64,000 nucleotides of DNA, taken from contig JAIPEW010000012.1 of the NCBI GenBank assembly GCA_021736985.1, positions 13,526-77,525 of the forward strand, written 5' to 3'. The DNA comes from Clostridiales bacterium (GTDB lineage Bacteria > Bacillota > Desulfotomaculia > Desulfotomaculales > VENG01). Shown in pieces: positions 9,294 to 56,695 of this stretch (position 1 is the stretch's first letter; the number at the start of each line of letters is the position of its first letter). Under the pieces are notes generated by a model, which had not been told where the DNA came from, searched no databases, and saw nothing but the letters and a program-made list of their open reading frames with translations. Position numbers and translations under genes: made by a program.

Positions 9294-10673
9294 TTGATCT
9301 CACCATGTAAAAAAACAATATTCTCTTACAGTAGAATATATTTAACCATTTCTTTTATCTTGATAACAATATCGATTTTTCTAGCAGCAAGTAATTTTAT
9401 ATTGTGGAAAGTAGTAGTTGAAGGTAAAAATGCTGCAGTATCTCAAGATCGCCAGAGTATAAAAGAAGCTGTTCGAAAATTGCATAAGCAGAAAGAAAGT
9501 AAGTACGGATTTGAAGTTGATACAAAACAGGACTTGAGAATTATGCCTTTACTGACATTAAAGCCGCGTGATTTTACATGCGCTAAAACCCGGGATGAAA
9601 TTATTAATCAACTAAATGATAAGGTGGATTTTACAACCAGCGGTGTAGCAATTGTTATTAATGGTAAGGAAAGGGTGTATGTAAGCAATATTGAAACTGC
9701 TAGAAAAAGTTTGAAAAAAATAGAAGACAAGTATTGCAGCCGGCAAGATGCTGCAGTAAGTTTTAAAGAAGAGATTAAATTAACAAGCATGGATGATATT
9801 CTAGCAAATAAAATTGATGATTTGAATAGTGCTGTGGATAAACTTGGCGGTAATGCTCAAAAGACAGAATATTATTGGATACAGGAAGGCGATACCCTGT
9901 GGGATATAGCTTCAGAAAAGGGTATAAAAAGAGAAAAAATATTACAGTTGAATGACGAAATTAAAAATAAAAAATTGCACGTGGGGCAAAAAATTAAGCT
10001 TGTTCAAAAAAAACATTTACTTAACGTAATAACCCGGTATAAAGATGTTCAATGCGAGGATATCCCGTACAGTGTAATGCAAAAAAAGGATAATGAGCTT
10101 GATATTACTGAAAATAAACTAATACAAAAAGGTATTCCAGGTAAAAAAAGAACAATATACCAGGTTGTTGAGGAAAATGGTGCAATAGTTAAACAAAAAA
10201 CAGTAAACCAGGAAATAATTAAAGAACCTCGTCCACAAATTGAAGTTACCGGAAATGATGCGCTGTTGGCTTACAGGTCAGGTAGAGAGATACACTGGCC
10301 GGTACAAGGTAATATAACTTCCGGGTTTGGCTGGAGGCATGGAGAAATGCACAGCGGCGTTGATATTGCAGCTTCTTATGGGGCCCCGGTAGTTGCTATG
10401 ATGTCAGGAAATGTCCAGGTCGCAAAAACTAAAAAACAATATGGAAAATTAATAAAGATAGTGCATAAAAACGGGTTAGCAACTAAATATGCACACTTAT
10501 CCAGTATACTGGTACCTGTGGGAAAGGTGGTATCCAGTGGCGAGAAAATTGGCTCGATAGGTGTAACAGGTAATGCTACAGGCCCTCACCTGCACTTTGA
10601 AGTCTTGATAAACGGAAAAACAGTTGATCCTTTAGAATATTTTAAAAGTTGTGGTATTAACCATAATAATTAA
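9294..10673 (+). CDS. LysM/G5/M23 peptidoglycan DD-endopeptidase
   Basis: N-terminal TM, LysM (GDTLWDIA), G5-like segment, HSGVD and HLHFE motifs. Confidence 0.9.
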   Translation: MISPCKKTIFSYSRIYLTISFILITISIFLAASNFILWKVVVEGKNAAVSQDRQSIKEAVRKLHKQKESKYGFEVDTKQDLRIMPLLTLKPRDFTCAKTRDEIINQLNDKVDFTTSGVAIVINGKERVYVSNIETARKSLKKIEDKYCSRQDAAVSFKEEIKLTSMDDILANKIDDLNSAVDKLGGNAQKTEYYWIQEGDTLWDIASEKGIKREKILQLNDEIKNKKLHVGQKIKLVQKKHLLNVITRYKDVQCEDIPYSVMQKKDNELDITENKLIQKGIPGKKRTIYQVVEENGAIVKQKTVNQEIIKEPRPQIEVTGNDALLAYRSGREIHWPVQGNITSGFGWRHGEMHSGVDIAASYGAPVVAMMSGNVQVAKTKKQYGKLIKIVHKNGLATKYAHLSSILVPVGKVVSSGEKIGSIGVTGNATGPHLHFEVLINGKTVDPLEYFKSCGINHNN

Positions 10674-10838
10674 ATCCCCACGGGCTTTCTAACTACAAAG
10701 GAATTTAAAATTCTTTTGCAGCTAAGTGAATGCCGGTGTTTTTTTTAGGAGATTCCGTGTTTTCTTCCGTAAATTTACCGGCCCCCTTAATTTGCAGATT
10801 GTTATCGCACCATAGCTTTCAGGTAATTTTCTATTTAA
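10670..10838 (-). repeat. TTAA-bounded modular element, degenerate copy
   Basis: Reverse complement reads TTAAATAGAAAATTACCTGAAAGCTATGG...ATAACAATCTGCAAATT...CCCGTGGGGATTTAA, matching the copies at 25305 and 28731. Confidence 0.8.
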
Positions 10839-11007
10839 TAAGCAGGGGGGGGGGATGGGGTAGCCCCGGGTGTTTACGTTCATCATATTGAGCAGCTGTC
10901 TGGTTCAAGATAAGGGCAATAAAATGAATTACCAAAAAACGTTCTTGCTCGATTAAATTATATGTATTATATTATAATATATAATTTCAAAGTAATTAAC
11001 TTTAAGA

Positions 11008-11607
11008 GTGCAGGAAAGAAGTGATTATGTGTCTATTTTTATAAATGCATCGAAAAACAAAAAAAGACAAAAAATTATTTTCTTCATAACAGCTGTCCTG
11101 ATGGCAGCCGGGCTTATTGGATCTACCCTGATAGGTGCTTTTGCCAGTAATGAAGCTAAGACGGCATCTCAGCAAATGACTCAGCCAGGTGCAAATAATG
11201 TATCTCAACTAGAAAAACAGGTGAAAGAAAATCCTCAAAATGCCGACTTGCTTGAAAAGTTGGCAAAGGCTTATTACAGGGAAAACCAGTTGGACAAGTC
11301 AATAAAAAGTTATAAAAAAGCCCTGGAACTTGAGCCTGCGAGCGCGGAACTTCGCACATCTTATGCTATTACTTTATTTGATGCCAATGAGTATAAAAAA
11401 GCCGTGGATCAAATGGAAAAAGAGATAAAACAAAATCCAGGTAACAATACAGCACATTTTTACCTGGGAGAATTCTATGCTTACGGCTTAAAAGATTATA
11501 GTAGTGCTATAGATGAATTAAATACATTTGTCAAAAATTCAAAAGCTGAAGACGAAAATGTTAAGCATGCAAAGCAAATAATTAAGGAGCTGGATAAAAA
11601 AGAGTAA
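11008..11607 (+). CDS. Membrane-anchored tetratricopeptide repeat protein
   Basis: N-terminal TM followed by TPR motifs (YKKALELEP, AHFYLG); start uncertain. Confidence 0.8.
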   Translation: MQERSDYVSIFINASKNKKRQKIIFFITAVLMAAGLIGSTLIGAFASNEAKTASQQMTQPGANNVSQLEKQVKENPQNADLLEKLAKAYYRENQLDKSIKSYKKALELEPASAELRTSYAITLFDANEYKKAVDQMEKEIKQNPGNNTAHFYLGEFYAYGLKDYSSAIDELNTFVKNSKAEDENVKHAKQIIKELDKKE

Positions 11608-11718
11608 GTCTAAAAAATTAAGGCTGGGTTGTAAAACCTGGCCTTTAATATGCTTAGTTGTTAACAAAATATTCCATAGTATTAATTAACTAATTGTAAA
11701 AATTAGGGGAGCTGCATA

Positions 11719-12606
11719 ATGTTCGGTCAAAAAGTTGCTAAAATAACCAGGGTTTTTATTGTATTTTTACTTGCTGTTTTTATGACAATAACCTTATTTT
11801 TACTGTGGATGCCCTTAAACGCAAGGACATATTTCTATGAGATTTACCGTGAATTACTTAAAACAAAAACAATAGTCAATACATGGGCCTGGGACTCTCT
11901 GGAAAGCAAGCATTTTGTATTACGGTACAAGGCCGGAGATGAAAAAAATGCTCAAATGGTAATTAAAGTAGCAGAAAAGTATTTTAAATTACTTGCGAAT
12001 AAGTATGAATTTGCTATTTCAACAAAAATACCGGTTATAATATATCCTACGCGAAAAGAATTAAATTCATATTTTGGCTGGCCGGCCAGTGAAAGTGCCA
12101 TGGGTGTGTACTGGGGAGGAGTAATTAGAATTCTTTCTCCCGAAGCATGGATTGAGTATAAGCATGAACAGGAGAAAAACGAGATATTTGATTTACAAGG
12201 TCCTGTTGCTCATGAATTAACTCACCTAATAATCGATTATAAATGCAGGGGAAATTATCCCCGCTGGTTTACAGAAGGTGTGGCACAATATGAAGAATTT
12301 AAACTTACCGGGTATATTATTGGAAGTTCTGAAAAAAAACTTAATGCAAGACATTACTCTTTTGATAGAATAGGGACAGAATTTGATAAATTACCTGACC
12401 AAACGCTGGCTTACAGACAATCCTTATCCATGGTTCAGTATATAATAGAACACCATAATGAAGAAGAAATGAATAAAATAATAACAAAATTATCCAGCGG
12501 CTGGTCGTTAAATGATATATTCTGCGAAGTAATAACTTTAAATAATTTTGAAGAAAATTGGCAGATATGGTTAAATAATAAGGTGAAAGAAGGATATATT
12601 AAGTAA
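11719..12606 (+). CDS. Peptidase MA family (gluzincin) metallohydrolase
   Basis: AHELTH and WFTEGVAQY motifs, N-terminal TM. Confidence 0.8.
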   Translation: MFGQKVAKITRVFIVFLLAVFMTITLFLLWMPLNARTYFYEIYRELLKTKTIVNTWAWDSLESKHFVLRYKAGDEKNAQMVIKVAEKYFKLLANKYEFAISTKIPVIIYPTRKELNSYFGWPASESAMGVYWGGVIRILSPEAWIEYKHEQEKNEIFDLQGPVAHELTHLIIDYKCRGNYPRWFTEGVAQYEEFKLTGYIIGSSEKKLNARHYSFDRIGTEFDKLPDQTLAYRQSLSMVQYIIEHHNEEEMNKIITKLSSGWSLNDIFCEVITLNNFEENWQIWLNNKVKEGYIK

Positions 12607-12669
12607 ATGTTGAAATTTAAAAAATAACGTTAAATAAAATCATATTTTAGGAAGGAAGTTGCTCAGCAC

Positions 12670-13935
12670 ATGAAGCAAGCCGAATATAAATTAATGATTG
12701 AAGGAGGACGGTCATTAAACGGAAAAGTGCAAGTGAGCGGGGCTAAAAACGCTTCACTGGCTCACTTGTGTGCAGCAACAATGGCCAGAGATCCGGTTAT
12801 ACTTGAAAATGTGCCTGATATAAAAGATATCAGGGTGGTAATAGAAATATTGCAGGAAATTGGATGCGAAATTAGCTGGCTGGGCCCCGGTGAGTTAAAA
12901 CTTTTTGCGCCAGAAAAATTAAAAAGACAGCCGCCTTTTGAATTAGTAAGAAAATTAAGAGCTTCTAACCTTTTGTTGGGGCCCCTGATTGCTCGTTATG
13001 GCAGTGTGCAGTTAGCACTGCCAGGTGGATGCAATATAGGAGTGAGACCTATGGATCTGCATTTCAAGGGGCTGTCAGGGCTCGGGACTGAAATTAATGT
13101 TAATCAGGGTGTGGTGGAGTCTAACACAAGGGGACTTCAAGGTTCGAGAATTTACATGGATTTTCCAAGTGTTGGTGCTACAGAAAATATAATGATGGCA
13201 GCATGTATGGCCCGGGGACAAACGGTGCTGGAAAACGTAGCCAAAGAACCAGAAGTGGTTGACCTGGCTAACTTTTTAAACTGCATGGGAGTTAAAGTGC
13301 GCGGTGCTGGGACAGATATTATAAAGATCGACGGTAATTCAGAAATGGGCGGCTGCTCGCGATACTCCATAATTCCTGACCGAATAGAAGCAGGTACCTT
13401 TATGGTAGCTGCAGCTGCTACAGGGGGAAATGTAGAAGTAGAAAACGTGATTCCTTTTCACCTGGAACCCATTTCAGCAAAACTCCGGGAGGCTGGTGTA
13501 GAGGTTATTGAATTGGAAGAAAGCATAAAAGTTCGGGCAGGTAAAGATATGTATCCAGTAGATTTAAAAACCCTTCCTTATCCCGGTTTTCCTACTGATA
13601 TGCAGTCCCAGTTTATGAGCATGTTATGTGCTGTGCCTGGTACCAGTGTGATTGTAGAAAATATTTTTGAAAACCGGTTTCAAATTGTTGATGAACTTAA
13701 AAGAATGGGTGCAAATATAAAAGTAGAAGGCCGGGCTGCCATAGTAGAGGGCCCGGTACAGTTCCAGGGTGCGCATGTCAAAGCTACAGACCTGCGAGCT
13801 GGTGCAGCCCTGGTGGTTGCAGGGTTAATGGCAGAGGGGTGCACACAAATATCAAATGTTAAGTATATTGACCGCGGATATTACCTGTTGCAAGAAAAAA
13901 TGACAAATCTTGGAGCTGCGATATGGAGAGAATAG
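12670..13935 (+). CDS. murA: UDP-N-acetylglucosamine 1-carboxyvinyltransferase
   Basis: SGAKNA, LPGGCNIG, PGFPTDMQ, TDLRAGA. Confidence 0.97.
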   Translation: MKQAEYKLMIEGGRSLNGKVQVSGAKNASLAHLCAATMARDPVILENVPDIKDIRVVIEILQEIGCEISWLGPGELKLFAPEKLKRQPPFELVRKLRASNLLLGPLIARYGSVQLALPGGCNIGVRPMDLHFKGLSGLGTEINVNQGVVESNTRGLQGSRIYMDFPSVGATENIMMAACMARGQTVLENVAKEPEVVDLANFLNCMGVKVRGAGTDIIKIDGNSEMGGCSRYSIIPDRIEAGTFMVAAAATGGNVEVENVIPFHLEPISAKLREAGVEVIELEESIKVRAGKDMYPVDLKTLPYPGFPTDMQSQFMSMLCAVPGTSVIVENIFENRFQIVDELKRMGANIKVEGRAAIVEGPVQFQGAHVKATDLRAGAALVVAGLMAEGCTQISNVKYIDRGYYLLQEKMTNLGAAIWRE

Positions 13936-13938
13936 ATA

Positions 13939-14418
13939 TTGCAAATTGTTATACTGGCAGTAGGTAAACTAAAAAAAGAATACCTGTTGGAAGCACAAAA
14001 TGATTATGTTAAGCGTTTAAAGCCTTATGCACGCATTGAAATTAAGGAACTGCCGGGTAAGAATTTGCAAGAAAAACATAATCACAGCATAGCACAAAAA
14101 ATTAAGCAAAAAGAAGGCCAGAACATATTAAAAAAGATAAAAGAAAGCAGTTACGTAATAGTTTTAGACAGGTATGGTGAAGAAATAAATTCTAATGAAA
14201 TGTCGACTAAAATTAACAAATTGGGGGTCGGTGGAAAAAGTCATATAACTTTTATAATCGGCGGGTCGCTAGGTTTGAGCGCGGAAGTCCTTGACCGGGC
14301 TGATTGGAAACTGTCTTTTTCTAAGCTTACTTTCCCGTATCAATTAACGCGTATTATACTTTTGGAGCAGGTTTACCGGAGTTTCAAGATAATTAAAGGC
14401 GAAACGTACCATAAATGA
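13939..14418 (+). CDS. rlmH: 23S rRNA pseudouridine-1915 N3-methyltransferase
   Basis: AVGKLK, FIIGGSLG, LLEQVYR...YHK. Confidence 0.96.
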   Translation: MQIVILAVGKLKKEYLLEAQNDYVKRLKPYARIEIKELPGKNLQEKHNHSIAQKIKQKEGQNILKKIKESSYVIVLDRYGEEINSNEMSTKINKLGVGGKSHITFIIGGSLGLSAEVLDRADWKLSFSKLTFPYQLTRIILLEQVYRSFKIIKGETYHK

Positions 14419-14783
14419 TTTTTTTGTGACTGGCTATGGACTAAGATTAATTAATTAGTTAAAATATAAACAAGTATAAAAGATAAGAGTCAATGTGCAT
14501 TTTTTAGAATAAATCTAAATTATTGAGATAATTTAATGAAAATTTAAAAATCTAATTTTATAAGGAAGGAAAAATAAAAAATATAGCGAATTATTCATTA
14601 AATCAAGGTATAAGTGTTTTTAGTTAAAGTCATATAGATAGCTAATTCTTTTATTTTAAGTAGTAATGTGAAAAATCACTCAAAAGAGTCCCGAATTTTC
14701 ATTATTGTAAGGGGGTGCAACACAGCTACTATTTTAAATAGTCTGGTTCTTTAATTTGTATTTAATAAAAGGAGGTATTGTTA

Positions 14784-16202: not shown

Positions 16203-16311
16203 GTTAACTGCAGCAGCTTAACAGGTTAGCAAGTAATATGATTAATATTTTATGAATAAGGTAGACGCGCCGGATAAAACGGCCAGTTATACCATACAAG
16301 GAGGTAGTCAA

Positions 16312-17499: not shown

Positions 17500-17527
17500 T
17501 ATTTACCTTTAAGGGAGCGATTAATAG

Positions 17528-17764: not shown

Positions 17765-17780
17765 GGAAAGTATGAATTAT

Positions 17781-17817
17781 AAAGAGGGGCTGTAATTCTA
17801 TATAGCCCCTCTTTTTT
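17781..17817 (+). terminator. Terminator after dsrABD
   Basis: AAAGAGGGGCTGTA...TATAGCCCCTCTTTTTT. Confidence 0.8.
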
Positions 17818-17837
17818 AATAAAGGGAGGACAAAAAA

Positions 17838-18455: not shown

Positions 18456-18457
18456 AA

Positions 18458-19117: not shown

Positions 19118-19122
19118 TTTGT

Positions 19123-25304: not shown

Positions 25305-25474
25305 TTAATTCGAAAACTTCTTAAAAACTATGGTTTTAAACGCAAAACAAATTGAAAGGGCCGGTAAATTTCCGGAAGGTAGCGGAGTCTCCTGGAGGAA
25401 ACCACTGGCCCTCCACCAGGCTGTCAGAAGAGTTTTCATACTTCGTTGTGAGCAAGAAACTCGTGGGAGCTTAA
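25305..25474 (+). repeat. TTAA-bounded modular element (short-loop type)
   Basis: TTAATTCGAAAACT...GGGCCGGTAAATTTCCGGAAGGTAGCGGAGTCT...TCAGAAGAGTTTTCATACTTCGTTGTGAGCAAGAAACTCGTGGGAGCTTAA. Confidence 0.9.
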
Positions 25475-28011: not shown

Positions 28012-28036
28012 CTATCCATATATTCTGAAAATTAAT

Positions 28037-28270
28037 GTTATGATGTGGAAAAAGGTACTGGAATCGCTAAGCGAGCCGGGGGTGGTGTGAGCCCGGTCGG
28101 GGAAAGTACCGGGCCTCCTCTGAACAGCAGGCTGAAACCTTACATATGGGAGTAAGTTGTGGCCGTTTACCCGCGTTAAGGGTTAAAAGGGGACTGTTAA
28201 TTGGAACAGTCAACTTGGGTGGTACCGCGAGCAAACTCTCGTCCCTTGTGAAGGGGCGGGAGTTTTTTTT
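28037..28270 (+). promoter_or_regulatory. T-box riboswitch leader
   Basis: AGCGA bulge and GGTGTGA loop of stem I, T-box AACTTGGGTGGTACCGCG (28212-28229), terminator AAACTCTCGTCCCTT-gtg-AAGGGGCGGGAGTTTTTTT. Confidence 0.93.
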
Positions 28271-28272
28271 AT

Positions 28273-28390
28273 TTAAATAGAAAACTCCCTGAAAACTATG
28301 GCTAGGGCTGGAGGAAACCACCGGCCCTCCACCCAACTGTCAGAAGAGTTTTCATACTCCGTTGTGAGCTCTAAGCTCGTGAGCGTTTAA
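28273..28390 (+). repeat. TTAA-bounded element, array unit 1 (118 bp, no internal module)
   Basis: TTAAATAGAAAACTCCCTGA...AGGGCTGG-aggaaacca-CCGGCCCT...TCAGAAGAGTTTTC...GCTCGTGAGCGTTTAA. Confidence 0.92.
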
Positions 28391-28734
28391 TCAGAAAACT
28401 TCCTGAAAATTATGGCCAGGGCCGGGGGATTTCCGGAAGGTAGCGGAGTCTGGGTGCGCTGCATAGCCCGTCAAATCCCGAAATCCCGGCTACTAAGGGC
28501 GTAAAAAACTTGCTGTGTAGTATCATTAAGCGGGTTTCTAAAACATACTTTATGCTCCCAGTAAAAATACGTCCAGCACTCAGCCCATTTCTAATGCAGG
28601 AAAGACAGAAGTAAAAATATACTACTTATAACACAATTTTTTAAAAAGCGCACTGAGTGCTGGACCGGACCTCCACCCAGCCGTCAGAAGAGTTTTCATT
28701 TTCCGTTGTGAGTAAGAAACTCGTGGGGGTTTAA
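28387..28734 (+). repeat. TTAA-bounded element, array unit 2 (348 bp, modules B, B2, C)
   Basis: Same ends; shares one TTAA with each neighbour. Confidence 0.92.
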
Positions 28735-29019
28735 ATAGAAAACTACGTTCTAAAACGCAAATAACAATCTGCAAATTGAAAGGGCTGGTGGATTTACGGA
28801 AGGCAGGGGAGTCTGGGTACGCTGCATAGCCCGTCATTTGCGAAGTGTGATATGGGAGGTGGGAAGTATGACAGTTTGAGGAAGTCTGCTGCGTAGACTT
28901 TTTCTTTTTCCCATCTCTAATTTCCCAATTCTCACTTCTGCCCTTTGCCCTGGTCCTTCACTCAGCAGTCAGAAGATTTTTCATACTACGTTGTTAACAA
29001 GAAGCTCGTGGGAATTTAA
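28731..29019 (+). repeat. TTAA-bounded element, array unit 3 (289 bp, modules A, B, heptamer B1)
   Basis: Same ends; interior homologous to 31081-31340 and 38946-39165. Confidence 0.92.
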
Positions 29020-29148
29020 TTAATAAACCCTGCACAGGATACCTTTAAATCTGCATATGTAAAATTTTTGAAAATGAAGCAGGTATAATCAAGTAAATAT
29101 ATTTGCTGTAAAGTTTTACAAGAAATATTTTGAAAGGAGTGAAAAACA

Positions 29149-29634
29149 GTGAATGAAAAAGAACTTCTCGAGCTGTTGGAAACTAATGCTAATTTGTCAA
29201 TTGCTGAAATATCAGCAATGTTAAATGCTTCCGAGGATGAAGTAAAAGAAAAAATAAAAGAGCTGGAATCGAATAAAACTATATTAAGATACATGACGCT
29301 GGTAAACTGGGAGAAATGTGAAAGAGAACAGGTTGAAGCTTTAATAGAAGTACGTATTACTCCGCAGAGAGAAGTAGGTTATGATGCTGTAGCTGAGCGT
29401 ATATACCGTTTTCCAGAAGTGCGCAGTGTCAAGTTAATGAGCGGTACTTATGATCTGGCAGTATTTGTTGAAGGAAAAAGCATGCAAAAAGTAGCCCATT
29501 TCGTAAACACAAAATTGGCGACAATAGAAGGTGTAGTAAATACTGTAACTCACTTCGTGTTAAAAACTTATAAAAAAGATGGGGTTATTATTGGAGACCA
29601 GGAAGAAGATAGGAGGTTGATGATTTCACCATGA
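29149..29634 (+). CDS. Lrp/AsnC family transcriptional regulator (YugG/AlaR-like)
   Basis: N-terminal HTH, RIYRFPEV...LMSGTYDL...THFVLKTYK. Confidence 0.88.
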   Translation: MNEKELLELLETNANLSIAEISAMLNASEDEVKEKIKELESNKTILRYMTLVNWEKCEREQVEALIEVRITPQREVGYDAVAERIYRFPEVRSVKLMSGTYDLAVFVEGKSMQKVAHFVNTKLATIEGVVNTVTHFVLKTYKKDGVIIGDQEEDRRLMISP

Positions 29635-30875
29635 AAAACATGTGGGAAGAAAAGCTGAGCCCGGTAGTGAAGTCTATACCACCTTCGGGGATCAGGAAAT
29701 TCTTTGATTTAGTAAGTGAAACCAGGGGAGTAATTTCTTTAGGCGTGGGTGAACCTGATTTTGTAACACCGTGGCATATTCGTGAGGCTGCAATTTATGC
29801 GATAGAACAGGGGTATACTATGTACACCTCTAATTACGGGCTTTTAGAGCTTCGTGAAGTAATTAGAGATGATATATACAAAAACTACGAAGTTCAATAT
29901 GACCCGAGAGCGGAAATATTGGTAACTGTAGGAGTAAGTGAAGCTCTGGACCTGGCTATGCGCGCTGTTATTTGCCCAGGGGATGAAGTGTTGATACCCG
30001 AGCCGTCCTATGTCAGTTATGCACCTACAGCGGTGTTGGCAGGGGGAAAACCTGTTTTTATGCAGACTACCATGGATAATAATTTTGTTTTGACTCCTGA
30101 ACAGGTAGAAAAATCGATTACTCCCAGGACCAAGGTCTTGATGATTTCATATCCTAATAATCCAACTGGTGCTGTAATGGATCGTGAAACAATGCTGGGC
30201 CTGGCAGAGGTAGCAAAGAAACATGACTTAATTATAATTTCAGATGAAATTTATGATAAACTTAATTATACGGGGGAACAGACTTGTATGGCTGCTTTAC
30301 CCGGTATGCGAGAGAGAACAATATTATTAAACGGTTTCAGCAAAGCTTATGCCATGACGGGATGGAGAATAGCATATGCTGCTGCTCATGCTGATTTTAT
30401 TAGTGCCATGACAAAAATCCACCAGTATTCTATCCTTTGCACACCAATATCAGCTCAAATGGCAGCCATGGAAGCATTGAAAAACGGGGATACTGCAATG
30501 AAAAAAATGGTGCGTGAATTTAATCGCCGCCGCCACCTTGTATTGCAAGGATTTAAAGATATGGGACTGCCGTGTTTTGAGCCCGGCGGGGCTTTTTATG
30601 CATTCCCTAATATAGAAGTTACTGGTTTATCATCAGAAGAGTTTGCTGAACAGCTGCTGCAGGAAGCCCAGGTTGCAACAGTTCCCGGCAGTGCTTTTGG
30701 AGATGCAGGAGAAGGCTATATACGCGTCTCTTATGCCTCTTCAATAGAAGATATAAGTGAAGCACTGCGGCGTATGGGCAAGTTTGTCCGGCGCAGGGGT
30801 GTATTTCCTAAAAAAGTAAGTACATCTAGCGGCACGGATTTTGTTCAGAAAGAAGGAATTTGTAATAATGTGTAG
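29631..30875 (+). CDS. Class I/II PLP aminotransferase (YugH/AlaT-like)
   Basis: PPSGIRKFFD, YPNNPTG, SDEIY, GFSKAYAMTGWR. Confidence 0.9.
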   Translation: MKNMWEEKLSPVVKSIPPSGIRKFFDLVSETRGVISLGVGEPDFVTPWHIREAAIYAIEQGYTMYTSNYGLLELREVIRDDIYKNYEVQYDPRAEILVTVGVSEALDLAMRAVICPGDEVLIPEPSYVSYAPTAVLAGGKPVFMQTTMDNNFVLTPEQVEKSITPRTKVLMISYPNNPTGAVMDRETMLGLAEVAKKHDLIIISDEIYDKLNYTGEQTCMAALPGMRERTILLNGFSKAYAMTGWRIAYAAAHADFISAMTKIHQYSILCTPISAQMAAMEALKNGDTAMKKMVREFNRRRHLVLQGFKDMGLPCFEPGGAFYAFPNIEVTGLSSEEFAEQLLQEAQVATVPGSAFGDAGEGYIRVSYASSIEDISEALRRMGKFVRRRGVFPKKVSTSSGTDFVQKEGICNNV

Positions 30876-31080: not shown

Positions 31081-31340
31081 TTAATCAGAAAACTCCCTAA
31101 AAGGGGCCAGGACCGGTGGATTTCCGGAAGGCAGCGGAGTCTGGGTGCGCTGCATAGCCTGTCATTTGCGAAGTGTAATGTGGGAAGTGTGATAATTTGA
31201 GGAATTCTGCTGTGTAGACTTTTTCTTTTTCTCACCTTTAATTCCCCACTTCTCACCTCTGCCCTTTGCCCTGGCTCTCCACTCAGCTGCTAGAAGAGTT
31301 TTTATACTATGTTGTGAGCAAGAAGCTCATGGGAGTTTAG
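31081..31340 (+). repeat. TTAA-bounded element (modules B, B1); right end reads TTAG
   Basis: TTAATCAGAAAACTCCC...GCTGCATAGCCTGTCATTTGCGAAGTG...GTTGTGAGCAAGAAGCTCATGGGAGTTTAG. Confidence 0.9.
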
Positions 31341-38891: not shown

Positions 38892-38949
38892 TTAACCTCA
38901 CACGGGCCCGGCAATGCTTAGAAGAAGCGCCGTGTGATTTTCTTATTAA
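38892..38949 (-). repeat. Minimal TTAA-bounded element (58 bp), unit of the second array
   Basis: Reverse complement TTAATAAGAAAATCACACGG...CCCGTGTGAGGTTAA keeps both end signatures. Confidence 0.6.
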
Positions 38950-39165
38950 ATATCCACGAGCTTCTTGTTCACAATGGAGAATGAAAACTCTTCTGACAGC
39001 TGGGTGGAGGGCCGGGGCAAAGGGCAGAGGTGAGAAGTGGGAAATTGTCACACATCCCATCTCCCACATCACACTTCGCAAATGACGGGCTATTCAGCGT
39101 ACTCAGGCTCGCTACCTTCTGGAAATCCGCCAGCCCTTTGAGTTAAACCAGAGTTTTCTGATTAA
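38946..39165 (-). repeat. TTAA-bounded element (modules B, shortened B1)
   Basis: Reverse complement of the same ends and interior as 28731-29019. Confidence 0.92.
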
Positions 39166-39277
39166 CCCCCCACAGGCCTTTATCTACAACCAGGTATAAC
39201 TATTTTGGCAGCAGATGGGACCGGAGGAACCCCTGGTTCTTCGGTAAGGTGCGTTTTAAACCATATATTTTGATTAA
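39162..39277 (-). repeat. Degenerate TTAA-bounded element, unit of the second array
   Basis: Reverse complement TTAATCAAAATATATGGTTTAAAACGCA...GGCCTGTGGGGGGTTAA. Confidence 0.7.
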
Positions 39278-46817: not shown

Positions 46818-46872
46818 TGGTATTTAGCAGGGCACAGCAGCTCTGCTATTTGTTTCTAAAGGGGAGAGGTAG

Positions 46873-49722: not shown

Positions 49723-49762
49723 ATAACCTTTAATGTTGGGTATTTTATACTAAAGTGAAAAC

Positions 49763-49960
49763 TTAATTCGTAAACTCTTAAAAAATGCAGATAACAAACT
49801 GCAAATTAAAAGAGCCGGGGGGGGGTTCTGGAAGGTAGCGCATACCATAAGATCCCCAAAACCCGGCTACTTAGGGCGTAAAAAACTTGCTGTGCAGTAT
49901 CACAGAGCGGAATTTGCTCCGTTGTGATCAATTCAAGACAAGAACCGTTCCCGGTATTAA
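49763..49960 (+). repeat. TTAA-bounded element (modules A, B2; alternative right end RE2)
   Basis: 49862-49902 matches 28485-28525 at 39 of 41 nt; ends CTCCGTTGTGATCAATTCAAGACAAGAACCGTTCCCGGTATTAA. Confidence 0.82.
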
Positions 49961-49986
49961 CTTTAGTATAATTAGAGGGGTATAGT

Positions 49987-51261
49987 ATGCAGGATACAGC
50001 GATATTCGTTGGAATTGTATTTGTTTTAACGTATATTATGATAGTATGGGAAAAAGTACATCGAACAGTTGTTGCTCTTGTGGGAGCCATGTTATTAGTA
50101 TTGACTGGAATTATATCCCAGGAAAGAGCAGTACATGCAATTGAATTTAACACCATAGGACTTTTAATTGGTATGATGATTATAGTGAGTATCACCAGGC
50201 GTACGGGACTTTTTGAGTTCCTGGCTGTTTGGACAGCAAAAGTTGCACAGGCCAGGCCGGGCAGAATAATGATGGGGCTTGCACTGCTTACTGCGGTTGC
50301 CTCGGCACTTTTAGATAATGTAACAACAGTTCTCCTGGTGGTTCCTGTTACTATTGAGATTGTGAGTATATTGAGGGTAAACCCGGTTCCTTTCTTAATT
50401 GTGGAAATTATAGCTTCTAACATAGGAGGTACTGCTACTCTCATAGGAGATCCTCCTAACATAATGATCGGTGGTTACACAGGGCTTAGTTTCATAAGTT
50501 TTATAGTCAATTTAGCGCCGGTGGCTATAATTATTTTTATTGTGACCATGGCCATACTCTGGTTCCTTTATAAGTCTAGTCTGGATGTTGAAGAAAAAAA
50601 CAGGCGGGATTTGCTGGAGTTAAATGAATTCGACACGATAGATGACACAGTTCTTTTAAAAAAGTGCCTTTTTGTTTTGGGGCTTACTATACTGGGTTTT
50701 GTACTGCACGGCTATTTAGGGTTAGAATCAGCGAGTATTGCCCTGGGGGGTGCTGCTTTACTGCTGCTTATAAGCGGCGCACAGCCGGAAGGGATACTTG
50801 AAGGAGTTGAGTGGCAGGTAATTTTTTTCTTTGTGGGCTTGTTTATACTGGTGGGAGCCCTGGAAGAAGTAGGCATTATAAAGATGATTGCTAAAAGCGG
50901 AATGGAATTAACCGGCGGAGAAATGGTTTCTACCGGCCTGCTGATACTGTGGCTTTCTGCTGTAGCATCAGCTTTTGTGGACAACATACCATTTGTGGCT
51001 ACGATGATTCCTTTAGTTGACGAGATGGGGACACTGGCTAATGTGCAGAACATTAACCCGTGGTGGTGGGCGCTTGCCCTGGGCGGGTGCCTTGGCGGCA
51101 ACGGTTCTCTGGTTGGCGCGGCAGCCAACGTGGTAGCTGTTGGACTGGCAGAACGACGGAATGTACAGCTGACCTTTCTTGGTTTTTTAAAAGTAGGTTT
51201 TCCTATCATGCTGCTGTCAGTTTTCATAGCCATGTTATATTTACTGTTGTTTTATTTTTAA
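49987..51261 (+). CDS. ArsB/NhaD (IT superfamily) transporter
   Basis: SALLDNVTT, GGTATLIGDPPN, SAFVDNIP. Confidence 0.88.
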   Translation: MQDTAIFVGIVFVLTYIMIVWEKVHRTVVALVGAMLLVLTGIISQERAVHAIEFNTIGLLIGMMIIVSITRRTGLFEFLAVWTAKVAQARPGRIMMGLALLTAVASALLDNVTTVLLVVPVTIEIVSILRVNPVPFLIVEIIASNIGGTATLIGDPPNIMIGGYTGLSFISFIVNLAPVAIIIFIVTMAILWFLYKSSLDVEEKNRRDLLELNEFDTIDDTVLLKKCLFVLGLTILGFVLHGYLGLESASIALGGAALLLLISGAQPEGILEGVEWQVIFFFVGLFILVGALEEVGIIKMIAKSGMELTGGEMVSTGLLILWLSAVASAFVDNIPFVATMIPLVDEMGTLANVQNINPWWWALALGGCLGGNGSLVGAAANVVAVGLAERRNVQLTFLGFLKVGFPIMLLSVFIAMLYLLLFYF

Positions 51262-51407
51262 TTAATGCGCTGCAATAGCTCACCCCGTATGAGCGAATTG
51301 AGCCTGAATTTTAGTTTAACCTGCAAAGTGAACGGAGCGAGTAAGGGTAAAGAGTGAGCGTTCAGTTTTTATGTTTGTATGTGAGCAGATAATAGTGGGC
51401 GATTTAA
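51262..51407 (+). repeat. Possible highly diverged TTAA-bounded element
   Basis: Starts TTAA; ends GTGAGCAGATAATAGTGGGCGATTTAA, resembling RE1; internal TGAACG...CGTTCA hairpin. Confidence 0.4.
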
Positions 51408-51476
51408 TTAATGCTTTCTTTTACATGAAGTGGGTTTATGGTATACTTAACCCCATAGAAAAGCAGGAGTGATTAT

Positions 51477-52544
51477 ATGACAGCAAAGCAGCGTAATACT
51501 GTGTACCAGCACGTGAGTGTTGCCGGGCCGGAACCTGAGATAATAGGCAGGGCCGGCCCTGTTTTGCGAGAGGGTGGGTTGGTAGCTTTCCCAACTGAAA
51601 CAGTTTACGGTCTGGGGGCAAATGCACTTGATGCCGGGGCAGTAGGTGAAATATTTACTGCGAAAAACCGTCCTGCTGATAATCCCTTGATTGTGCACCT
51701 GGAACGTAAAGAACAGGTCTATAATGTAGCTTTAAAAATTAATAGAACTGCAGAGAAGTTAATGTCTGCTTTTTGTCCGGGCCCCCTCACCCTGGTTTTG
51801 CCCGGCAGAAGCAATCTTCCCGTGGAAGTGACTGCTGGACTGAACACGGTGGCTGTAAGAATTCCCGATCACCCGGTAGCCCTGGCACTTTTTCGCGAGG
51901 CCGGTGTGCCGGTAGCTGCTCCCAGTGCAAACTTGTCGGGAAGACCGAGCCCAACTACGGGGGAACATGTTTTGGAAGACTTAAAGGGTAAGGTTGATAT
52001 GATACTGGACAGCGGGCCCGTAGGTGTGGGAGTGGAATCTACAGTAGTGGATGTGACCGGTGATATACCGCTAATACTTCGTCCCGGGGGAGTGACTCCC
52101 CGCCAGATAGAAGAAACAGTGGGTAGCGTGGAACTGGCTCCGGGAGCAGCCGGAAATTATGAGTGTGCAGGAGGCAAGCCCCTTTCTCCGGGGTTAAAGC
52201 ACAAGCATTATGCTCCCAGTGTACCCATGTTTTTAGTTGAGGGCATTACTGAAAATGCAGTAAAAGTTATAATGAAATTTATATGCGAATATAAAGAAAA
52301 AGGGAAAGATGTAGGAGTTCTTTCTCCTGAAGAATCTGCACATCGTTATAGCAATGCAAAAGTTGTAGAGTACGGGAGCAAAAAAGATCCCGCGAGTATG
52401 GCTGTTGGCCTGTATAGTGCCCTGCGAGAAATTGACAGCCTGGGGGTGGACATTATTCTGGCCGAGGGTATCGGCAGTGAAGAAATAGAGCTTGCAGTAA
52501 TGGACCGCCTGAGGCGCGCGGCGGACAAAGTTATAAAAATTTAA
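51477..52544 (+). CDS. tsaC: Threonylcarbamoyl-AMP synthase (Sua5/YwlC)
   Basis: FPTETVYGLGA, KNRPADNPLIVH, APSANLSGRPSPT, HYAP. Confidence 0.95.
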   Translation: MTAKQRNTVYQHVSVAGPEPEIIGRAGPVLREGGLVAFPTETVYGLGANALDAGAVGEIFTAKNRPADNPLIVHLERKEQVYNVALKINRTAEKLMSAFCPGPLTLVLPGRSNLPVEVTAGLNTVAVRIPDHPVALALFREAGVPVAAPSANLSGRPSPTTGEHVLEDLKGKVDMILDSGPVGVGVESTVVDVTGDIPLILRPGGVTPRQIEETVGSVELAPGAAGNYECAGGKPLSPGLKHKHYAPSVPMFLVEGITENAVKVIMKFICEYKEKGKDVGVLSPEESAHRYSNAKVVEYGSKKDPASMAVGLYSALREIDSLGVDIILAEGIGSEEIELAVMDRLRRAADKVIKI

Positions 52545-52566
52545 TTTTATTTTTTGGGGGATTTGC

Positions 52567-53115
52567 GTGGCTGTACTAACCTTATTGATACTTGCGGTAG
52601 CACTGGGAACCGATGCTTTTTCCATGTGCCTTGGCCTTGGAATGGCCGGTGTTAACCGCAGGCAGATTATAATAGTTAGCTTCACCGTACTGGCGTTTCA
52701 CATGATAATGCCTCTTATCGGGTGGTTCATAGGTGATATTCTCGGTGCTTTTCTGGGCAGGGCGGCAAGTATCGCCGGGGCCCTGGTGCTGGTTTACCTG
52801 GGTATCCGTATGATTTACACTGCTTGGAAAGGGGAAGAAGAAGTTGAGCACGGGGAAGCACTGGTGAGCATAAGCAGCATGTTTTTACTTGCTGCCAGCG
52901 TCAGTATGGATGCTCTTAGCGTTGGTTTTACACTTGGCACGCGTGATGTGAATTTGCCAATTACTGTAGCGGTTATAGGCCTGGTGGCAGGAATTATGAC
53001 TGGTATTGCTATGATCATGGGAAAATTCATAGGTGCCCGTATTGGAGAAAAAGCCGTAGGAATAGGCGGTGTACTTCTTGTTGGAATAGGTGTAAAAATG
53101 TTTTTAATGAGCTAG
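52567..53115 (+). CDS. mntP: Manganese efflux pump MntP family
   Basis: ALGTDAFS and SVSMDALSVG duplicated motifs. Confidence 0.88.
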   Translation: MAVLTLLILAVALGTDAFSMCLGLGMAGVNRRQIIIVSFTVLAFHMIMPLIGWFIGDILGAFLGRAASIAGALVLVYLGIRMIYTAWKGEEEVEHGEALVSISSMFLLAASVSMDALSVGFTLGTRDVNLPITVAVIGLVAGIMTGIAMIMGKFIGARIGEKAVGIGGVLLVGIGVKMFLMS

Positions 53116-53178
53116 GAGAGTAAAACAACTCCTTGCTGAAAAAATATTTTTTATTGATAGAGCAGGTGAAAGAATACT

Positions 53179-53667
53179 ATGAGTAAAAGAAAAAAAATAA
53201 TTTTTGTGTGTACTGGAAATACTTGCCGGAGTGTAATGGCAGAAGCAATAGCAAAAAATAAGTTAAAAAACAACAGCAGCATACCAGCGGAAATTGATAT
53301 AGAATCTGCCGGTACAACTGCAATGCCCGGCTTGCCGCCTTCTGAAAATGCTGTTAAGGCATTGGAATCGCTGGGAATAGATGCAGGTGAATTTATTTCT
53401 AACCTGTTAGAAAAAGAAGATATAGAACAAGCCGACCTGGTATTAACTATGACAGCTTCTCACCGCAACCAGGTTAGGAATATGGTCCCGGCGGAGTGTA
53501 ATGATAAAGTTTATACGCTGGCGGAATATGCAGGTGTAGGTAATGATGTCCTTGATCCTATCGGGGCTTCAGCAGATGTTTACCGGCAGTGCGCAAAAGA
53601 AATTGAATTAATGTTAAACAAAGCACTGGAAAACTTTATGTCGAAAAAGGATGACAGCAAATATTAA
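53179..53667 (+). CDS. Low-molecular-weight protein arginine/tyrosine phosphatase (YwlE-like)
   Basis: FVCTGNTCRS, DVLDP. Confidence 0.92.
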   Translation: MSKRKKIIFVCTGNTCRSVMAEAIAKNKLKNNSSIPAEIDIESAGTTAMPGLPPSENAVKALESLGIDAGEFISNLLEKEDIEQADLVLTMTASHRNQVRNMVPAECNDKVYTLAEYAGVGNDVLDPIGASADVYRQCAKEIELMLNKALENFMSKKDDSKY

Positions 53668-53734
53668 ATCTAGTATATTTAAAAGGATAAATTTTATAAA
53701 ATATTGAAGTATAAATGCCAGGAGGGAAACTGAA

Positions 53735-54187
53735 TTGAGAATAGTTTTTGCTGCAGATCACGGGGGAGTACATTTAAAAGAGTATTTAATAAATTTTGTA
53801 AAAGAAGACTATGATTGCAAAGATTTTGGGACTTATACGGAGGAATCAGTGGATTATCCTGACATGGCCTTGCTGGTATCAGAAGCTGTTGCCGGGGGGG
53901 AATTTGACCTGGGTGTACTGTGCTGTGGTACAGGTATAGGTGTGTCAGTTTCAGCTAATAAAGTGCCTGGTGTTCGCGCGGCATTGTGCCATGATGTTTT
54001 TTCTGCACGTATGGCCCGCGAACACAATAATGCCAATATAATTACCATGGGTCAGAGAGTAATCGGGCCCGGCCTGGCAGGAGAAGTTTTAAAGTCTTTT
54101 TTGAATGCGCGTTTCTCAGGGGGTAGACATGCCCGCCGGGTAAACAAAATACAGGGCATTGAAAAAAGATACTGCAATCCACGGTAA
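53735..54187 (+). CDS. rpiB: Ribose 5-phosphate isomerase B
   Basis: ADHGG, VDYPD, CGTGIG, AREHNNAN, GGRH. Confidence 0.96.
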   Translation: MRIVFAADHGGVHLKEYLINFVKEDYDCKDFGTYTEESVDYPDMALLVSEAVAGGEFDLGVLCCGTGIGVSVSANKVPGVRAALCHDVFSARMAREHNNANIITMGQRVIGPGLAGEVLKSFLNARFSGGRHARRVNKIQGIEKRYCNPR

Positions 54188-54214
54188 TAAATACGGAAGG
54201 AGCAAATTACGAAT

Positions 54215-55447
54215 ATGGATTTTTCTACACCTCTTAGTAAAGTGGACCCGGAAGTTTCCCGGGCGATAGATCTGGATAAAAAAAGGCAGCGAACCACGCT
54301 GGAGCTAATTGCTTCGGAAAACATGGTTAGTGGTGCAGTGATGGAGGCACAGGGTTCGGTGCTCACCAATAAATATGCTGAAGGATACCCGCATAACCGC
54401 TATTACGGTGGATGCGAGTATGTGGATATAGTTGAGGATCTGGCAATACAGAGGGCCAGGGAAATCTTTGGGACCAGTTATGCAAATGTGCAGCCCCATT
54501 CCGGTACCCAGGCGAATACGGCAGTTTATTATCAATTTCTAAAGCCGGGGGGGAAGATCATGGGTATGGACCTTGCTCACGGGGGACATTTAACTCACGG
54601 GTGCAAGGCCAATATCTCGGGAAAATATTTTGATATTATTTTTTACGGTGTTGATGAAAACACCTTTTGCATTGATTATGACAGGGTAAGAGAAATCGCC
54701 CGGAAAAATCGCCCGGACATGATTGTAGCAGGAGCCAGTGCATATCCAAGGTGCATAGATTTTAAAGTATTCCGGGAAATCGCAGATGAAGTAGGCGCTT
54801 ATTTGATGGTAGATATGGCCCATATAGCTGGCCTGGTGGCAGCTGGTGAGCATATGAGCCCGGTTCCATACAGCCACGTGATAACTACAACTACTCATAA
54901 AACCTTGCGGGGGCCCCGGGGCGGAATGATATTATCCGGTGAAGAATACGGCAATGCTATCGACAAAGCTATTTTCCCCGGTATCCAGGGAGGTCCGCTC
55001 ATGCACGTGATTGCTGCCAAAGCCGTAGCCCTGGGAGAGGCATTGAGCCCTGGTTTTAAAGATTATCAAAAACAAGTAGTTAAAAATGCCCGTGCAATGG
55101 CCGGTGTTTTACTTGAGCGCGGGTATGATTTATTGTCCGGGGGGACAGATAACCACCTGCTCCTTTTGGACCTGCGATCTAAAGATATTACAGGTGCGGA
55201 TGCTGAAACCGTACTTGATGATGTAGGTATAACAGTAAATAAAAATGCTATTCCTTTTGATCCCCGTCCACCGGCAGTGGCCAGCGGTATCAGGATTGGA
55301 ACACCTGCTGTTACTACTCGCGGGCTTAAGGAAAAAGATGCAGAAGAAATAGCCCGTGTAATTGATACAGCTCTTACTGCACCGGAGAAAAGGGAAGAAG
55401 CACGCAAAAAAGTCCGTGAGATCTGCGAGCAGTTCCCTGTTTATTAA
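54215..55447 (+). CDS. glyA: Serine hydroxymethyltransferase
   Basis: [27 protein letters not shown]. Confidence 0.98.
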
Positions 55448-55635
55448 TTGCACATATACGGGGACGGTTTTTGACTTGAATTTAACACTCAGCGCACTTT
55501 GAAGGATTGTGTTAATAATCAGCAGGTGAACATATGCTTTTACTCCTCTCCTTCCTGCAGTGAAGTTATGTTGAGTGCCGGGCCCTTTTGTTCAAGTTAG
55601 TATTTTGCGTTTTAAACTGGAGTTTTCTAATTTAA
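55444..55635 (-). repeat. TTAA-bounded element (modules A, C; RE2)
   Basis: Reverse complement TTAAATTAGAAAACTCCAGTTTAAAACGCA...module C homolog...AATTCAAGTCAAAAACCGTCCCCG...TTAA. Confidence 0.82.
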
Positions 55636-55656
55636 CTTATACGGGAGAAATTTACT

Positions 55657-56112
55657 ATGGAAACCAGGCCTTCCTGGGACAAGTATTTTATGGATATATG
55701 CCGGGTGGTAGCATCGCGCTCTACCTGCCTGAGGCGGAAGGTAGGGGCAGTTGCCGTACGGGATAACCGTATATTAGCTACGGGATACAACGGGGCCCCG
55801 GCTGGCTTGACGCACTGCATAGATGCCGGCTGCTTGCGCGAGCAGCTTGGCGTCCCTTCTGGCGAGCGCCACGAGCTCTGCCGGGGGCTCCACGCGGAGC
55901 AAAATGCCATAATACAAGCCGCTGTCTACGGGATCCCCCTGGGCGGGGCTGTATTTTACTTGACTAACCAGCCGTGTATTGTTTGTGCCAAAATGTTGGT
56001 TAACGCGCAGGCGCGTCGCGTGGTTTACGAGGGCGGTTACCCTGATGATCTTGCAGTTGAGGTGTTTAAAGAAGCAGGTATTCCCCTTGAGCATTTTGAG
56101 AAAGATGATTAG
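55657..56112 (+). CDS. dCMP deaminase / ComEB family
   Basis: [29 protein letters not shown]. Confidence 0.93.
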
Positions 56113-56191
56113 TATATAATGCATATAGTTTAATATCTTGCTATAGTACAAATGAAAGTTGTTTTCTAACTTCTGCAAGGTGGTGCTGAGT

Positions 56192-56500
56192 GTGCAGAAA
56201 AAAATAGTTACCCTGCCCAGGCTCAACAACCTGACACCTACCATGGAATCTACGGCGCTAAAGCTAATGGAAGAAGCAGGTGAACTGGCCCAGGTAATAG
56301 GAAAGTTCCGGGGAATGAGTGGAGAGGCTACGGCCCTGGAAGAGCAAGAAGTTTTGAGACGAATAACAGGGGAACTTTTGGATGTGGCCCAGACGGCAGT
56401 TTCCATGATGTTCGTGCTGGAAGAAAATCACGGTGTTGACATAGAAACAGAGCTGCAGGAGCATATTAAAAAACTGAAGGAAAAAAATTATCTGGATTAA
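56192..56500 (+). CDS. MazG-like nucleotide pyrophosphohydrolase
   Basis: EEAGEL...ELLDV acidic motif; GTG 56192 after AAGGTGG. Confidence 0.82.
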   Translation: MQKKIVTLPRLNNLTPTMESTALKLMEEAGELAQVIGKFRGMSGEATALEEQEVLRRITGELLDVAQTAVSMMFVLEENHGVDIETELQEHIKKLKEKNYLD

Positions 56501-56505
56501 TAAAA

Positions 56506-56695
56506 GTAATACCAGCGACGGTCCTTAACATGAATTGCTCACAACGGAGTATGAAAATTCTTTCAGCAACCATGTATAGGCCGGTGGTACTCGGAGCGGA
56601 CGTGCGGAGGCGCATTCTCCGGCGCCCGAGGCTGATTGAGCTCGGACAATTCTATGTGCCGAAGTAGGGAGCGGAGAACAAAGTTTTCTGATCAA
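56506..56695 (-). repeat. Element copy with unique GC-rich module D and RE2
   Basis: Reverse complement TTGATCAGAAAACT...GAATTTTCATACTCCGTTGTGAGCAATTCATGTTAAGGACCGTCGCTGGTATTAC. Confidence 0.8.

Follow-up and report, generated by a model that had tools for sequence, protein, structure and literature searches.

We analysed a stretch of 64,000 nt (hereafter the window) from the draft genome of a Clostridiales bacterium (GenBank assembly GCA_021736985.1, contig JAIPEW010000012.1, positions 13,526 to 77,525). The genes of the window represent the housekeeping set of a spore former and include SleB-like, YpeB-like, CTP synthase and aminotransferase genes; a Pfam scan covered 10 of the 76 open reading frames (ORFs), and all 10 are housekeeping genes. 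The window also contains 13 units of a family of short, non-coding repeats, most of which are bounded by the word TTAA. These units are the subject of this report, and their positions are given in Table 1. A base-by-base reading of the window confirmed every copy, with its coordinates, that had been named in a first-pass annotation of the same DNA; these account for 12 of the units, and the remaining one is a mini unit of 37 nt. The annotation had described the family as TTAA-bounded and as having a single right arm. This is correct for most copies, the right-arm string matching the consensus of our 16-copy right-arm alignment, and incorrect for the units at 49763, 55444 and 56506, which feature a different right end (type B, as opposed to the common type A). 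The boundaries also deviate in the units at 31081-31340 (TTAG) and 56506-56695 (TTGA and TTAC). Where units adjoin in the window, one TTAA is common to both.

The family is found throughout the genome (2.84 Mb in 65 contigs, 39% G+C). Profiles of the right and the left arm, built from window copies and run on the whole draft genome with nhmmer, returned 148 right-arm and 93 left-arm matches, which were grouped into 151 loci. The resulting count of approximately 150 copies is far above chance. A covariance model of the right arm, made from unit copies, yielded 110 matches in the draft genome (111 candidates scored), and exact repeats of the conserved cores, 14 to 39 nt in length, occur 27 to 50 times each. 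Only one public sequencing run, probably obtained from the source sample, contains the stretch, and no RNA data set is listed as containing it. In this run, summed word depth reached approximately 3250 (bin mean) over the array, versus approximately 76 for unique sequence. Left and right arms are neighbours, in this order, in 72 pairs, 63 of which span 118 to 384 nt; the most frequent lengths are approximately 275 nt (seven units measure exactly 275 nt), 241–299 nt and 348 nt. The 84 right arms with no profile-detected left arm are in many cases located at contig ends, or have a left-end motif 100–400 nt upstream and a divergent interior. Mini forms of 37–58 nt consist only of the left-end motif and approximately 14 nt of the right end, and overall lengths range from 37 to 384 nt.

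Units have a modular organization. The left end is formed by TTAA, three variable bases and a conserved purine-rich hexamer. In the 118-nt form, this motif is followed by a long imperfect inverted repeat and a 44-nt tail. The inverted repeat, composed of an 8-bp outer stem, a 4-bp step and an 8-bp G+C-rich stem, begins 7 nt from the left boundary, and its right arm lies 44 nt inside the element. Longer forms carry one to three internal hairpin modules inserted between the two halves of the inverted repeat. One such module, present in one subfamily, resembles an intrinsic terminator, with a hairpin and a T run. Since module junctions are often located at short direct repeats, the shorter forms may be deletion products. 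The tail features a hairpin of 4–5 bp, 12 nt before the terminal TTAA. Conservation is higher in the interior of the units than at the very start of the left end, and no promoter-like site is consistently present in them. Antisense stop-free frames of approximately 71 codons, with no evident start, are common to seven of the 275- and 348-nt units; they are probably by-products of repeat conservation.

Of the two hairpins described in the first-pass annotation, the small one at the right end is maintained by compensatory changes, and the long subterminal stem is conserved without such changes. In the 16-copy alignment, 77% of the cells of the 3' hairpin are paired, versus 14–34% when partners are slid. 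Three of the five pairs change on both sides, and the score is reached by 1 of 500 shuffles; unit copies share descent, and tests across them overstate significance. The fifth pair is TA in 11, CG in 10, AT in 3 and AA in 22 of 52 copies. The top strand folds better than the bottom strand in 42 of 63 units, by 4.9 kcal/mol on average, a weak indication as the copies are related. Folding z-scores are modest and alike on both strands (-0.56/-0.36 for the 170-nt unit and -2.6/-2.3 for the 348-nt unit). As the first-pass annotation had stated, the termini are not inverted repeats of each other: in the end sequences of 34 units and in the right-arm consensus, the inverted order common to both ends is TTAA plus at most one more base.

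TTAA closes 88 of the 99 right arms that reach the end of the model and opens 63 of 69 left ends. As the word is identical at the two ends, a target duplication and an element-borne TTAA look alike in these boundary counts. According to a crude gene call, on which the orientation counts below also depend, 142 of 148 right arms lie between genes. Genome-wide, 12 of 99 right-end TTAAs include the stop codon of a gene, an overlap that requires TTAA to be present on either side of the unit. Among 58 solitary right ends, 49 have T immediately after the TTAA, and the bases beyond are A-rich. The TTAA context is therefore not palindromic.

Multiple units, or a unit junction, are present at 24 of the 151 loci, none of which has mixed strands. 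The junction pattern was found 59 times in head-to-tail and never in head-to-head arrangement; the absence of tail-to-tail pairs is drawn from the strand counts of the loci, the tail-to-tail pattern itself having returned AT-rich noise. This strict head-to-tail arrangement argues for strand- or orientation-specific insertion over symmetric DDE cut-and-paste. Arrays combine unlike subfamilies, such as the 118-, 348- and 289-nt units at 28273-29019 of the window, and thus are not simple local duplications. Several contig ends feature runs of 275-nt units that are 92–97% alike, and these runs may also have grown by amplification. Relative to neighbouring genes, 34 units have the same and 46 the opposite orientation.

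The 750-nt three-unit array at 28273-29019 parts a T-box leader, which has a terminator-like hairpin, from its presumed target operon, composed of genes for an AsnC-type regulator and an aminotransferase. Given its location between leader and operon, the array must be transcribed through.

Among the genomes searched, the units are restricted to this one. We compared 40 relatives, of which two belong to the same family and 38 to the same order. None has a blastn match to the units, and the covariance model found no match in the two same-family genomes and a marginal one, probably due to chance, in one relative (G013; E 0.006, 25 bits). Exact-pattern scans of one genome per species gave no match and then two single chance matches in unrelated phyla, a scan of metagenome contigs gave one chance match in a eukaryote-like contig, and collections of plasmids and phages gave no match to the units. 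When the whole window was compared with Rfam 15, only a T-box and two tRNAs reached the gathering score, and matches at 28250-29030 were at chance level with E values of up to 10. The units thus have no Rfam match; the first-pass annotation had likewise recognised no named family in them. The same result led us to discard a known ribozyme, a group I or group II intron and a tRNA-like origin; the group II intron reverse transcriptase of this genome is, moreover, unrelated in sequence to the units. An array of integron cassettes (attC) was discarded as well, as units are dispersed over 151 loci, mostly as single copies, and their boundary words misfit the core-site consensus. The family looks new and lineage-specific; the literature search was limited and not made by sequence, and absence from print is not claimed.

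To judge from their copy number, their dispersal among unrelated flanks and their precise boundaries, the units are very probably non-autonomous mobile DNA. How they move is a separate question, for which we tentatively favour strand-specific insertion next to TTAA, with a Y1 HUH enzyme acting in trans. The unit would be inserted in one orientation, probably into single-stranded DNA 3' of (T)TTAA, by an enzyme of the IS200/IS605 type or of the type of the REP-associated tyrosine transposases (RAYTs; REP, repetitive extragenic palindromic). Its own terminal TTAA would provide a fresh target in the right orientation. Insertion 3' of TTAA of a unit that itself ends in TTAA would result in head-to-tail stacking with one TTAA in common. 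With TTAA on both sides, landing on the TTAA of a stop codon would also be harmless to the gene. In contrast, symmetric DDE cut-and-paste at a palindromic TTAA is expected to produce terminal inverted repeats and both orientations, neither of which is seen. The single-strand "peel and paste" route of Y1 HUH enzymes is in keeping with orientation-specific insertion beside a short word, with asymmetric ends and with a right-end hairpin at a distance of approximately 12 nt. In passages of one report, an IS605-type element has the predicted insertion site TTTAA, read as NTTAA by its TnpB (PMC11043419), and passages of another describe gene-less derivatives, similar to palindrome-associated transposable elements (PATEs), that are moved in trans (PMC10055086).

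We identified four RAYT-like genes of 258–315 codons in the genome. The predicted proteins feature a Y1 HUH domain and a C-terminal helix-turn-helix; their translations show a His-hydrophobic-His (HUH-like) triplet and the region of the conserved Tyr. Each of the four has a match to Pfam Y1_Tnp. The gene on contig C59 scores 80.8 bits with the NCBIfam model of REP-associated tyrosine transposases (NF047646, cut-off 80), and the others, at 64.8–74.3 bits, remain under the cut-off. Three of the four genes are flanked by short palindromes that recur in the genome, as evidenced by counts of blast matches (Table 1). This low-GC spore former looks like a host of several REP/RAYT-type systems. RAYT Group 1 is noted in Clostridia in a passage of one study (PMC5581495), and the text of a REP survey contains no mention of Firmicutes (PMC3733652).

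Type B right ends, of which there are approximately 11 copies genome-wide, contain a motif of approximately 22 nt that is also found 3' to the RAYT-like gene of contig C1, and a 13-nt core of it is present on both flanks of the C59 gene. Palindromes of other families flank the remaining two RAYT-like genes. The motif beside these two genes contains CGTC, which within units occurs in type B ends only. A CGTC tag marks one of two REP super-families, as described in the same survey (PMC3733652). The type B motif is the only sequence link between the family and a putative enzyme gene, and a weak one.

The first-pass annotation had reported no mobiliser in the window. This is confirmed for Y1_Tnp, the TnpB zinc ribbon, IscB and Y2_Tnp, none of which has a match on the window's contig; for other proteins it is bounded by the Pfam scan, which covers 10 of the 76 ORFs. 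Genome-wide, there are 12 matches to Y1_Tnp and 12 to TnpB. These matches comprise an intact IS605-type pair, a decayed IS608-like family, an IS607-type element and the four RAYT-like genes. Other resident mobile DNA includes an IS110-family element, an IS3-type gene and group II introns. None of the resident elements has sequence in common with the main unit ends, and none is located between a left and a right end. The IS608-like family has gene-less fusions of its left and right ends of approximately 60 nt, which are PATE-like and unrelated to the TTAA family. A piece of an IS110-family element forms the left end of the window's contig, outside the window.

When 34 complete units were compared by blastn with 13 regions of tnpA, tnpB, IS607 or IscB type, the matches were limited to an unrelated neighbouring unit and to 14–17 nt of the left end. 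Assembled IS110- and IS607-type copies have no sequence in common with the unit ends and are not bounded by TTAA. No transposase gene is bracketed by family ends: the nine end pairs more than 1 kb apart enclose ordinary genes (the ORFs of five pairs, of 1–8 kb, were read by eye). No recombinase gene was found within or beside units in the pairs examined, and no multi-copy DDE transposase with matching ends was found. Y2_Tnp had no match in the assembly and none in control genomes either, so that this negative is weak. A right arm located approximately 820 nt downstream of the decayed insertion sequence on contig C30 was considered as an end of that element but turned out to belong to a unit of its own.

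The ends of contigs overlap by 139 nt, and repeats are located at many of them. A HEARO RNA, which goes with IscB, was identified next to the intact IS605-type pair. Its first 138–199 nt recur at seven contig ends, among them ends of C1, C9, C35, C37, C47 and C52, and no IscB gene is assembled. HEARO stubs at contig ends without IscB imply that the draft lacks the interiors of multi-copy elements, so that a genome-wide absence of a mobiliser cannot be concluded. On C37, the HEARO copy directly adjoins a repeat unit, the terminal TTAA of which it interrupts. An omega-RNA/PATE reading of the units is unlikely, as their right end carries the TTAA of the target side and a guide RNA that reads the flank would find its motif at the filled site too.

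Table 1. Repeat units of the window and other features of the genome. Positions without prefix refer to the window; C and L are our handles for contigs and loci.
Feature	Position	Strand	Remarks
Unit, 169 nt, diverged, type A right end	10670-10838	-	Covariance-model match C42:24195-24274
Right-end TTAA of the 169-nt unit	10670-10673	-	Includes stop codon of M23-peptidase gene 9294-10673
Unit, 170 nt, type A right end	25305-25474	+	TTAA at both ends
T-box leader	28031-28249		5' of three-unit array
Terminator-like hairpin of T-box leader	28233-28265
Unit, 118 nt, shortest complete type A form	28273-28390	+	Opens three-unit head-to-tail array
Unit, 348 nt, long form	28387-28734	+	Two extra internal hairpin modules; TTAA common with both neighbours
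Antisense frame (example)	28413-28625	-
Unit, 289 nt, other subfamily	28731-29019	+	Terminator-like hairpin and T run at 28878-28904
AsnC-type regulator gene	29149-29634		Presumed target operon of T-box
Aminotransferase gene	29631-30875		Presumed target operon of T-box
Unit, 260 nt, subfamily of 28731-29019	31081-31340	+	82% over 182 nt; right end TTAG
Unit, 116 nt, diverged	39162-39277	-	Opens three-unit head-to-tail array
Unit, 220 nt, type A right end	38946-39165	-	Middle of the minus-strand array
Mini unit, 58 nt	38892-38949	-	Left-end motif and right-end-like terminus only; minus-strand array
Unit, 198 nt, usual left end, type B right end	49763-49960	+	REP-like motif; final TTAA
Unit, 192 nt, type B right end	55444-55635	-
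Last TTAA of the 192-nt unit	55444-55447	-	Includes stop codon of gene 54215-55447
Unit, 190 nt, decayed type B right end	56506-56695	-	Starts TTGA, ends TTAC
Mini unit, 37 nt	56692-56728	-	Directly upstream of 56506-56695, boundary common to both; form as other minis
RAYT-like genes	L006:1045-1911, L005:1108-1929, L002:1099-1872, L003:1501-2307
Palindromes at RAYT-like genes			Matches: C39 gene, both sides, 45 and 49; C33 gene, one side, 31; C59 gene, both sides, 44 and 9
Leading candidate enzymes	C59:96242-97015 and C1:45105-45911, then C36:34580-34975		RAYT-like genes, then IS605 tnpA
Intact IS605-type pair	C36:33482-34975		Includes the only intact IS605 tnpA, C36:34580-34975
Decayed IS608-like family, tnpA and tnpB fragments	L004:1251-2411 (C30:42910-44070)		4-5 copies; inserts after TTAC
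Further IS608-like sites	C61:37010-37068, C28:86770-86830, C46:7910-7967
IS110-family element	C35:18142-19965		Related pieces at C32 and C57 ends, C28:42765-43356, C40:70792-70920, C42:23-142 (outside the window, at the left contig end)
Group II intron reverse transcriptase/maturase	C12:104770-106197, C12:3-1028, C34:4179-4799, C38:6327-6950, others		Approximately 7 copies; several contig ends lie inside these introns
HEARO RNA, 108 bits	L001:2045-2280 (C36:35133-35368)		Goes with IscB; IS605-type tnpA-tnpB pair adjoins in C36, after the RNA

A Y1 HUH enzyme had already been suggested in the first-pass annotation. The head-to-tail arrangement, the RAYT-like genes and the type B motif at two of their flanks are in favour of it, whereas no direct tie of type A ends to an enzyme emerged. 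Several observations weigh against such an enzyme. No type A end stands beside any of the four RAYT-like genes, and type A ends, which most copies carry, are unlike the ends of any assembled element of the IS605, IS607 or IS110 type. The type B link is limited to a minority of units, and one of the genes concerned, that on C1, looks truncated at its 5' end. A unit fragment beside one of the eight RAYT-like flanks could be a matter of chance, given approximately 150 units and approximately 2000 intergenic regions. RAYT-like genes are present in 35 of 41 genomes of the order, yet the 40 relatives yielded no convincing unit match. The left end has no hairpin like that of the right end, whereas classical IS200/IS605 ends carry hairpins at the left as well as at the right. 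The 8-bp outer stem is near-invariant, and its departures are mismatches, with no compensatory changes. In addition, G.T and A.C mismatches are nearly equal in number (18 versus 14 in the outer stem, 12 versus 21 in the hairpin), and selection on one strand is consequently not evident in the stems. IS200/IS605 insertions are reportedly biased with respect to replication. With the local majority of gene direction as a crude proxy for replication direction, 35 units are co-oriented, 47 are anti-oriented and 29 are unclear, which reveals no bias among copies that are not independent. Finally, contigs assembled from the source run break at units, other copies explain the joints listed, and none of the contigs spans an empty site. 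With no empty site available in these contigs or in the 40 relatives, mobility is inferred, and a target duplication may or may not accompany it.

It is doubtful, and yet worth stating, that the units exemplify an undescribed route, in which strand-specific enzymes, HUH-type or other, would spread non-coding DNA, and the elements would seed self-extending arrays and swap modules or a terminus with co-resident REP-like families. If this were true, several RAYT-REP systems, along with a chimeric long form of them, would exist side by side in this genome, outside the phyla from which such systems were described.

Other explanations account for part of the data. Movement by an enzyme other than Y1, such as an IS110-type DEDD enzyme, a serine or tyrosine recombinase that uses a circular right end-TTAA-left end junction or an unrecognised and possibly unassembled protein, is unlikely. 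Asymmetric ends and orientation-specific insertion would also fit site-specific recombination, IS110- and IS607-family elements are present in the genome, and repeat interiors are missing from the draft, several repeat families, such as the HEARO-bearing one, being seen only as contig-end stubs. On the other hand, the assembled IS110/IS607-type copies lack both the sequence of the unit ends and TTAA bounds, and in the pairs examined (the ORFs of five of the nine pairs above 1 kb having been read by eye) no recombinase gene lies in or beside the units. Very unlikely is a classical miniature inverted-repeat transposable element (MITE), mobilized by a DDE transposase that duplicates a target site of 4 bp (TTAA) or 2 bp (TA). 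Such an element would explain TTAA at both ends, the small size, high number and intergenic location of the units, and the long internal inverted repeat that starts 7 nt inside the left boundary. The outermost bases of the ends, however, are not inverted repeats, and the right inverted repeat is 44 nt inside the element. All 59 junctions are head-to-tail, although insertion into a palindromic target is expected to occur in either orientation. T follows the right TTAA in 49 of 58 cases, which makes the flank asymmetric, and no multi-copy DDE transposase with matching ends was identified.

The units may alternatively be, above all, structured RNAs or cis-acting elements of transcripts (terminators, stabilisers or small RNAs) for which spread is secondary. 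We regard this as quite unlikely, even though conservation is higher in the interior, where cores occur in 27–50 exact copies, than at the start of the left end, the 3' hairpin covaries, folding favours the top strand in 42 of 63 units (weakly informative in related copies), a terminator-like hairpin and a T run are present in one subfamily, and one array separates a T-box leader from its operon. Against a role in transcripts are the lack of any Rfam match even at E values of up to 10, the mixed orientation relative to neighbouring genes (34 same, 46 opposite), a module content that varies from 37 to 384 nt, the lack of a consistent promoter-like site, folding z-scores that are modest and similar on the two strands, and the fact that G.T is not favoured over A.C mismatches. 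Also highly improbable is an immobile relic, the arrays and copy number of which would have grown by unequal recombination or slippage between copies. The runs of 275-nt units, 92–97% alike, at several contig ends and the failure to identify a mobiliser are compatible with a relic, but 151 dispersed loci with unrelated flanks require a dispersal step, arrays are made of unlike subfamilies, and boundaries are precise at TTAA.

Among known systems, the family works most like the REP/REPIN-RAYT and PATE systems. Similar to REPs, including their bacterial interspersed mosaic elements (BIMEs), the units are short, intergenic, hairpin-forming, gene-less and lineage-specific, and number in the tens to hundreds. 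Single-copy Y1 HUH genes are located elsewhere in the genome, modules are arranged in mosaics, and, for type B ends only, a CGTC motif occurs at RAYT-like flanks. Units differ from REPs in that they are far longer (118–384 nt), are bounded by TTAA and have a non-palindromic 44-nt tail, and their type A ends flank no RAYT-like gene. REPINs consist of two short REP palindromes in inverted order, which form one long hairpin and carry a GTAG or CGTC tag; the units are closed by a long imperfect inverted repeat, but its arms are not REP-like palindromes. IS200/IS605 elements and PATEs, like the units, have no terminal inverted repeats and lie next to a fixed word of 4–5 nt, and members of this group are abundant in the genome. 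In IS608, a subterminal hairpin is located approximately 10 nt from the right end, a geometry similar to that of the units. In contrast, the unit ends bear no sequence likeness to any assembled member, their left end has no matching hairpin, and their right-end word is the target word itself, whereas the resident IS608-like family uses TTAC.

MITEs with terminal inverted repeats include those of the IS630/Tc1 type, in which the target is TA, and those of the piggyBac type, in which it is TTAA. Units resemble them in size, copy number, intergenic location and the presence of TTAA on both sides, but have no terminal inverted repeats at their boundaries and occur next to each other in one relative orientation only. 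Rolling-circle HUH elements of the IS91/Helitron group have asymmetric ends, a hairpin approximately 10–12 nt before the 3' end, insertion between A and T, and a tendency to occur in tandem. The TTAA before and the T after the unit in 49 of 58 cases are reminiscent of this group, whereas the terminal words are different. BOX elements of pneumococci and bcr elements of the Bacillus cereus group are modular, lineage-specific, foldable intergenic repeats of low-GC Gram-positive bacteria that have no known mobiliser, and the units are similar to them. We know of no TTAA boundaries or head-to-tail stacking in BOX or bcr elements, which were compared by description only.

Dense non-autonomous repeats have been well studied in proteobacteria, where REP/REPIN-RAYT systems occur, and much less in spore-forming low-GC bacteria. 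Units break short-read assemblies, and many contig ends are located inside them. As units are found inside transcription units and over stop codons, they matter for annotation and possibly for gene expression. The genome analysed here joins approximately 150 head-to-tail TTAA mosaics, four RAYT-like Y1 genes, three of which have palindrome families of their own, and many parts of the IS200/IS605 type. It thereby offers a natural system for two questions, namely, how a trans-acting single-strand transposase chooses its substrates and how arrays are built by an element that recreates its own target.

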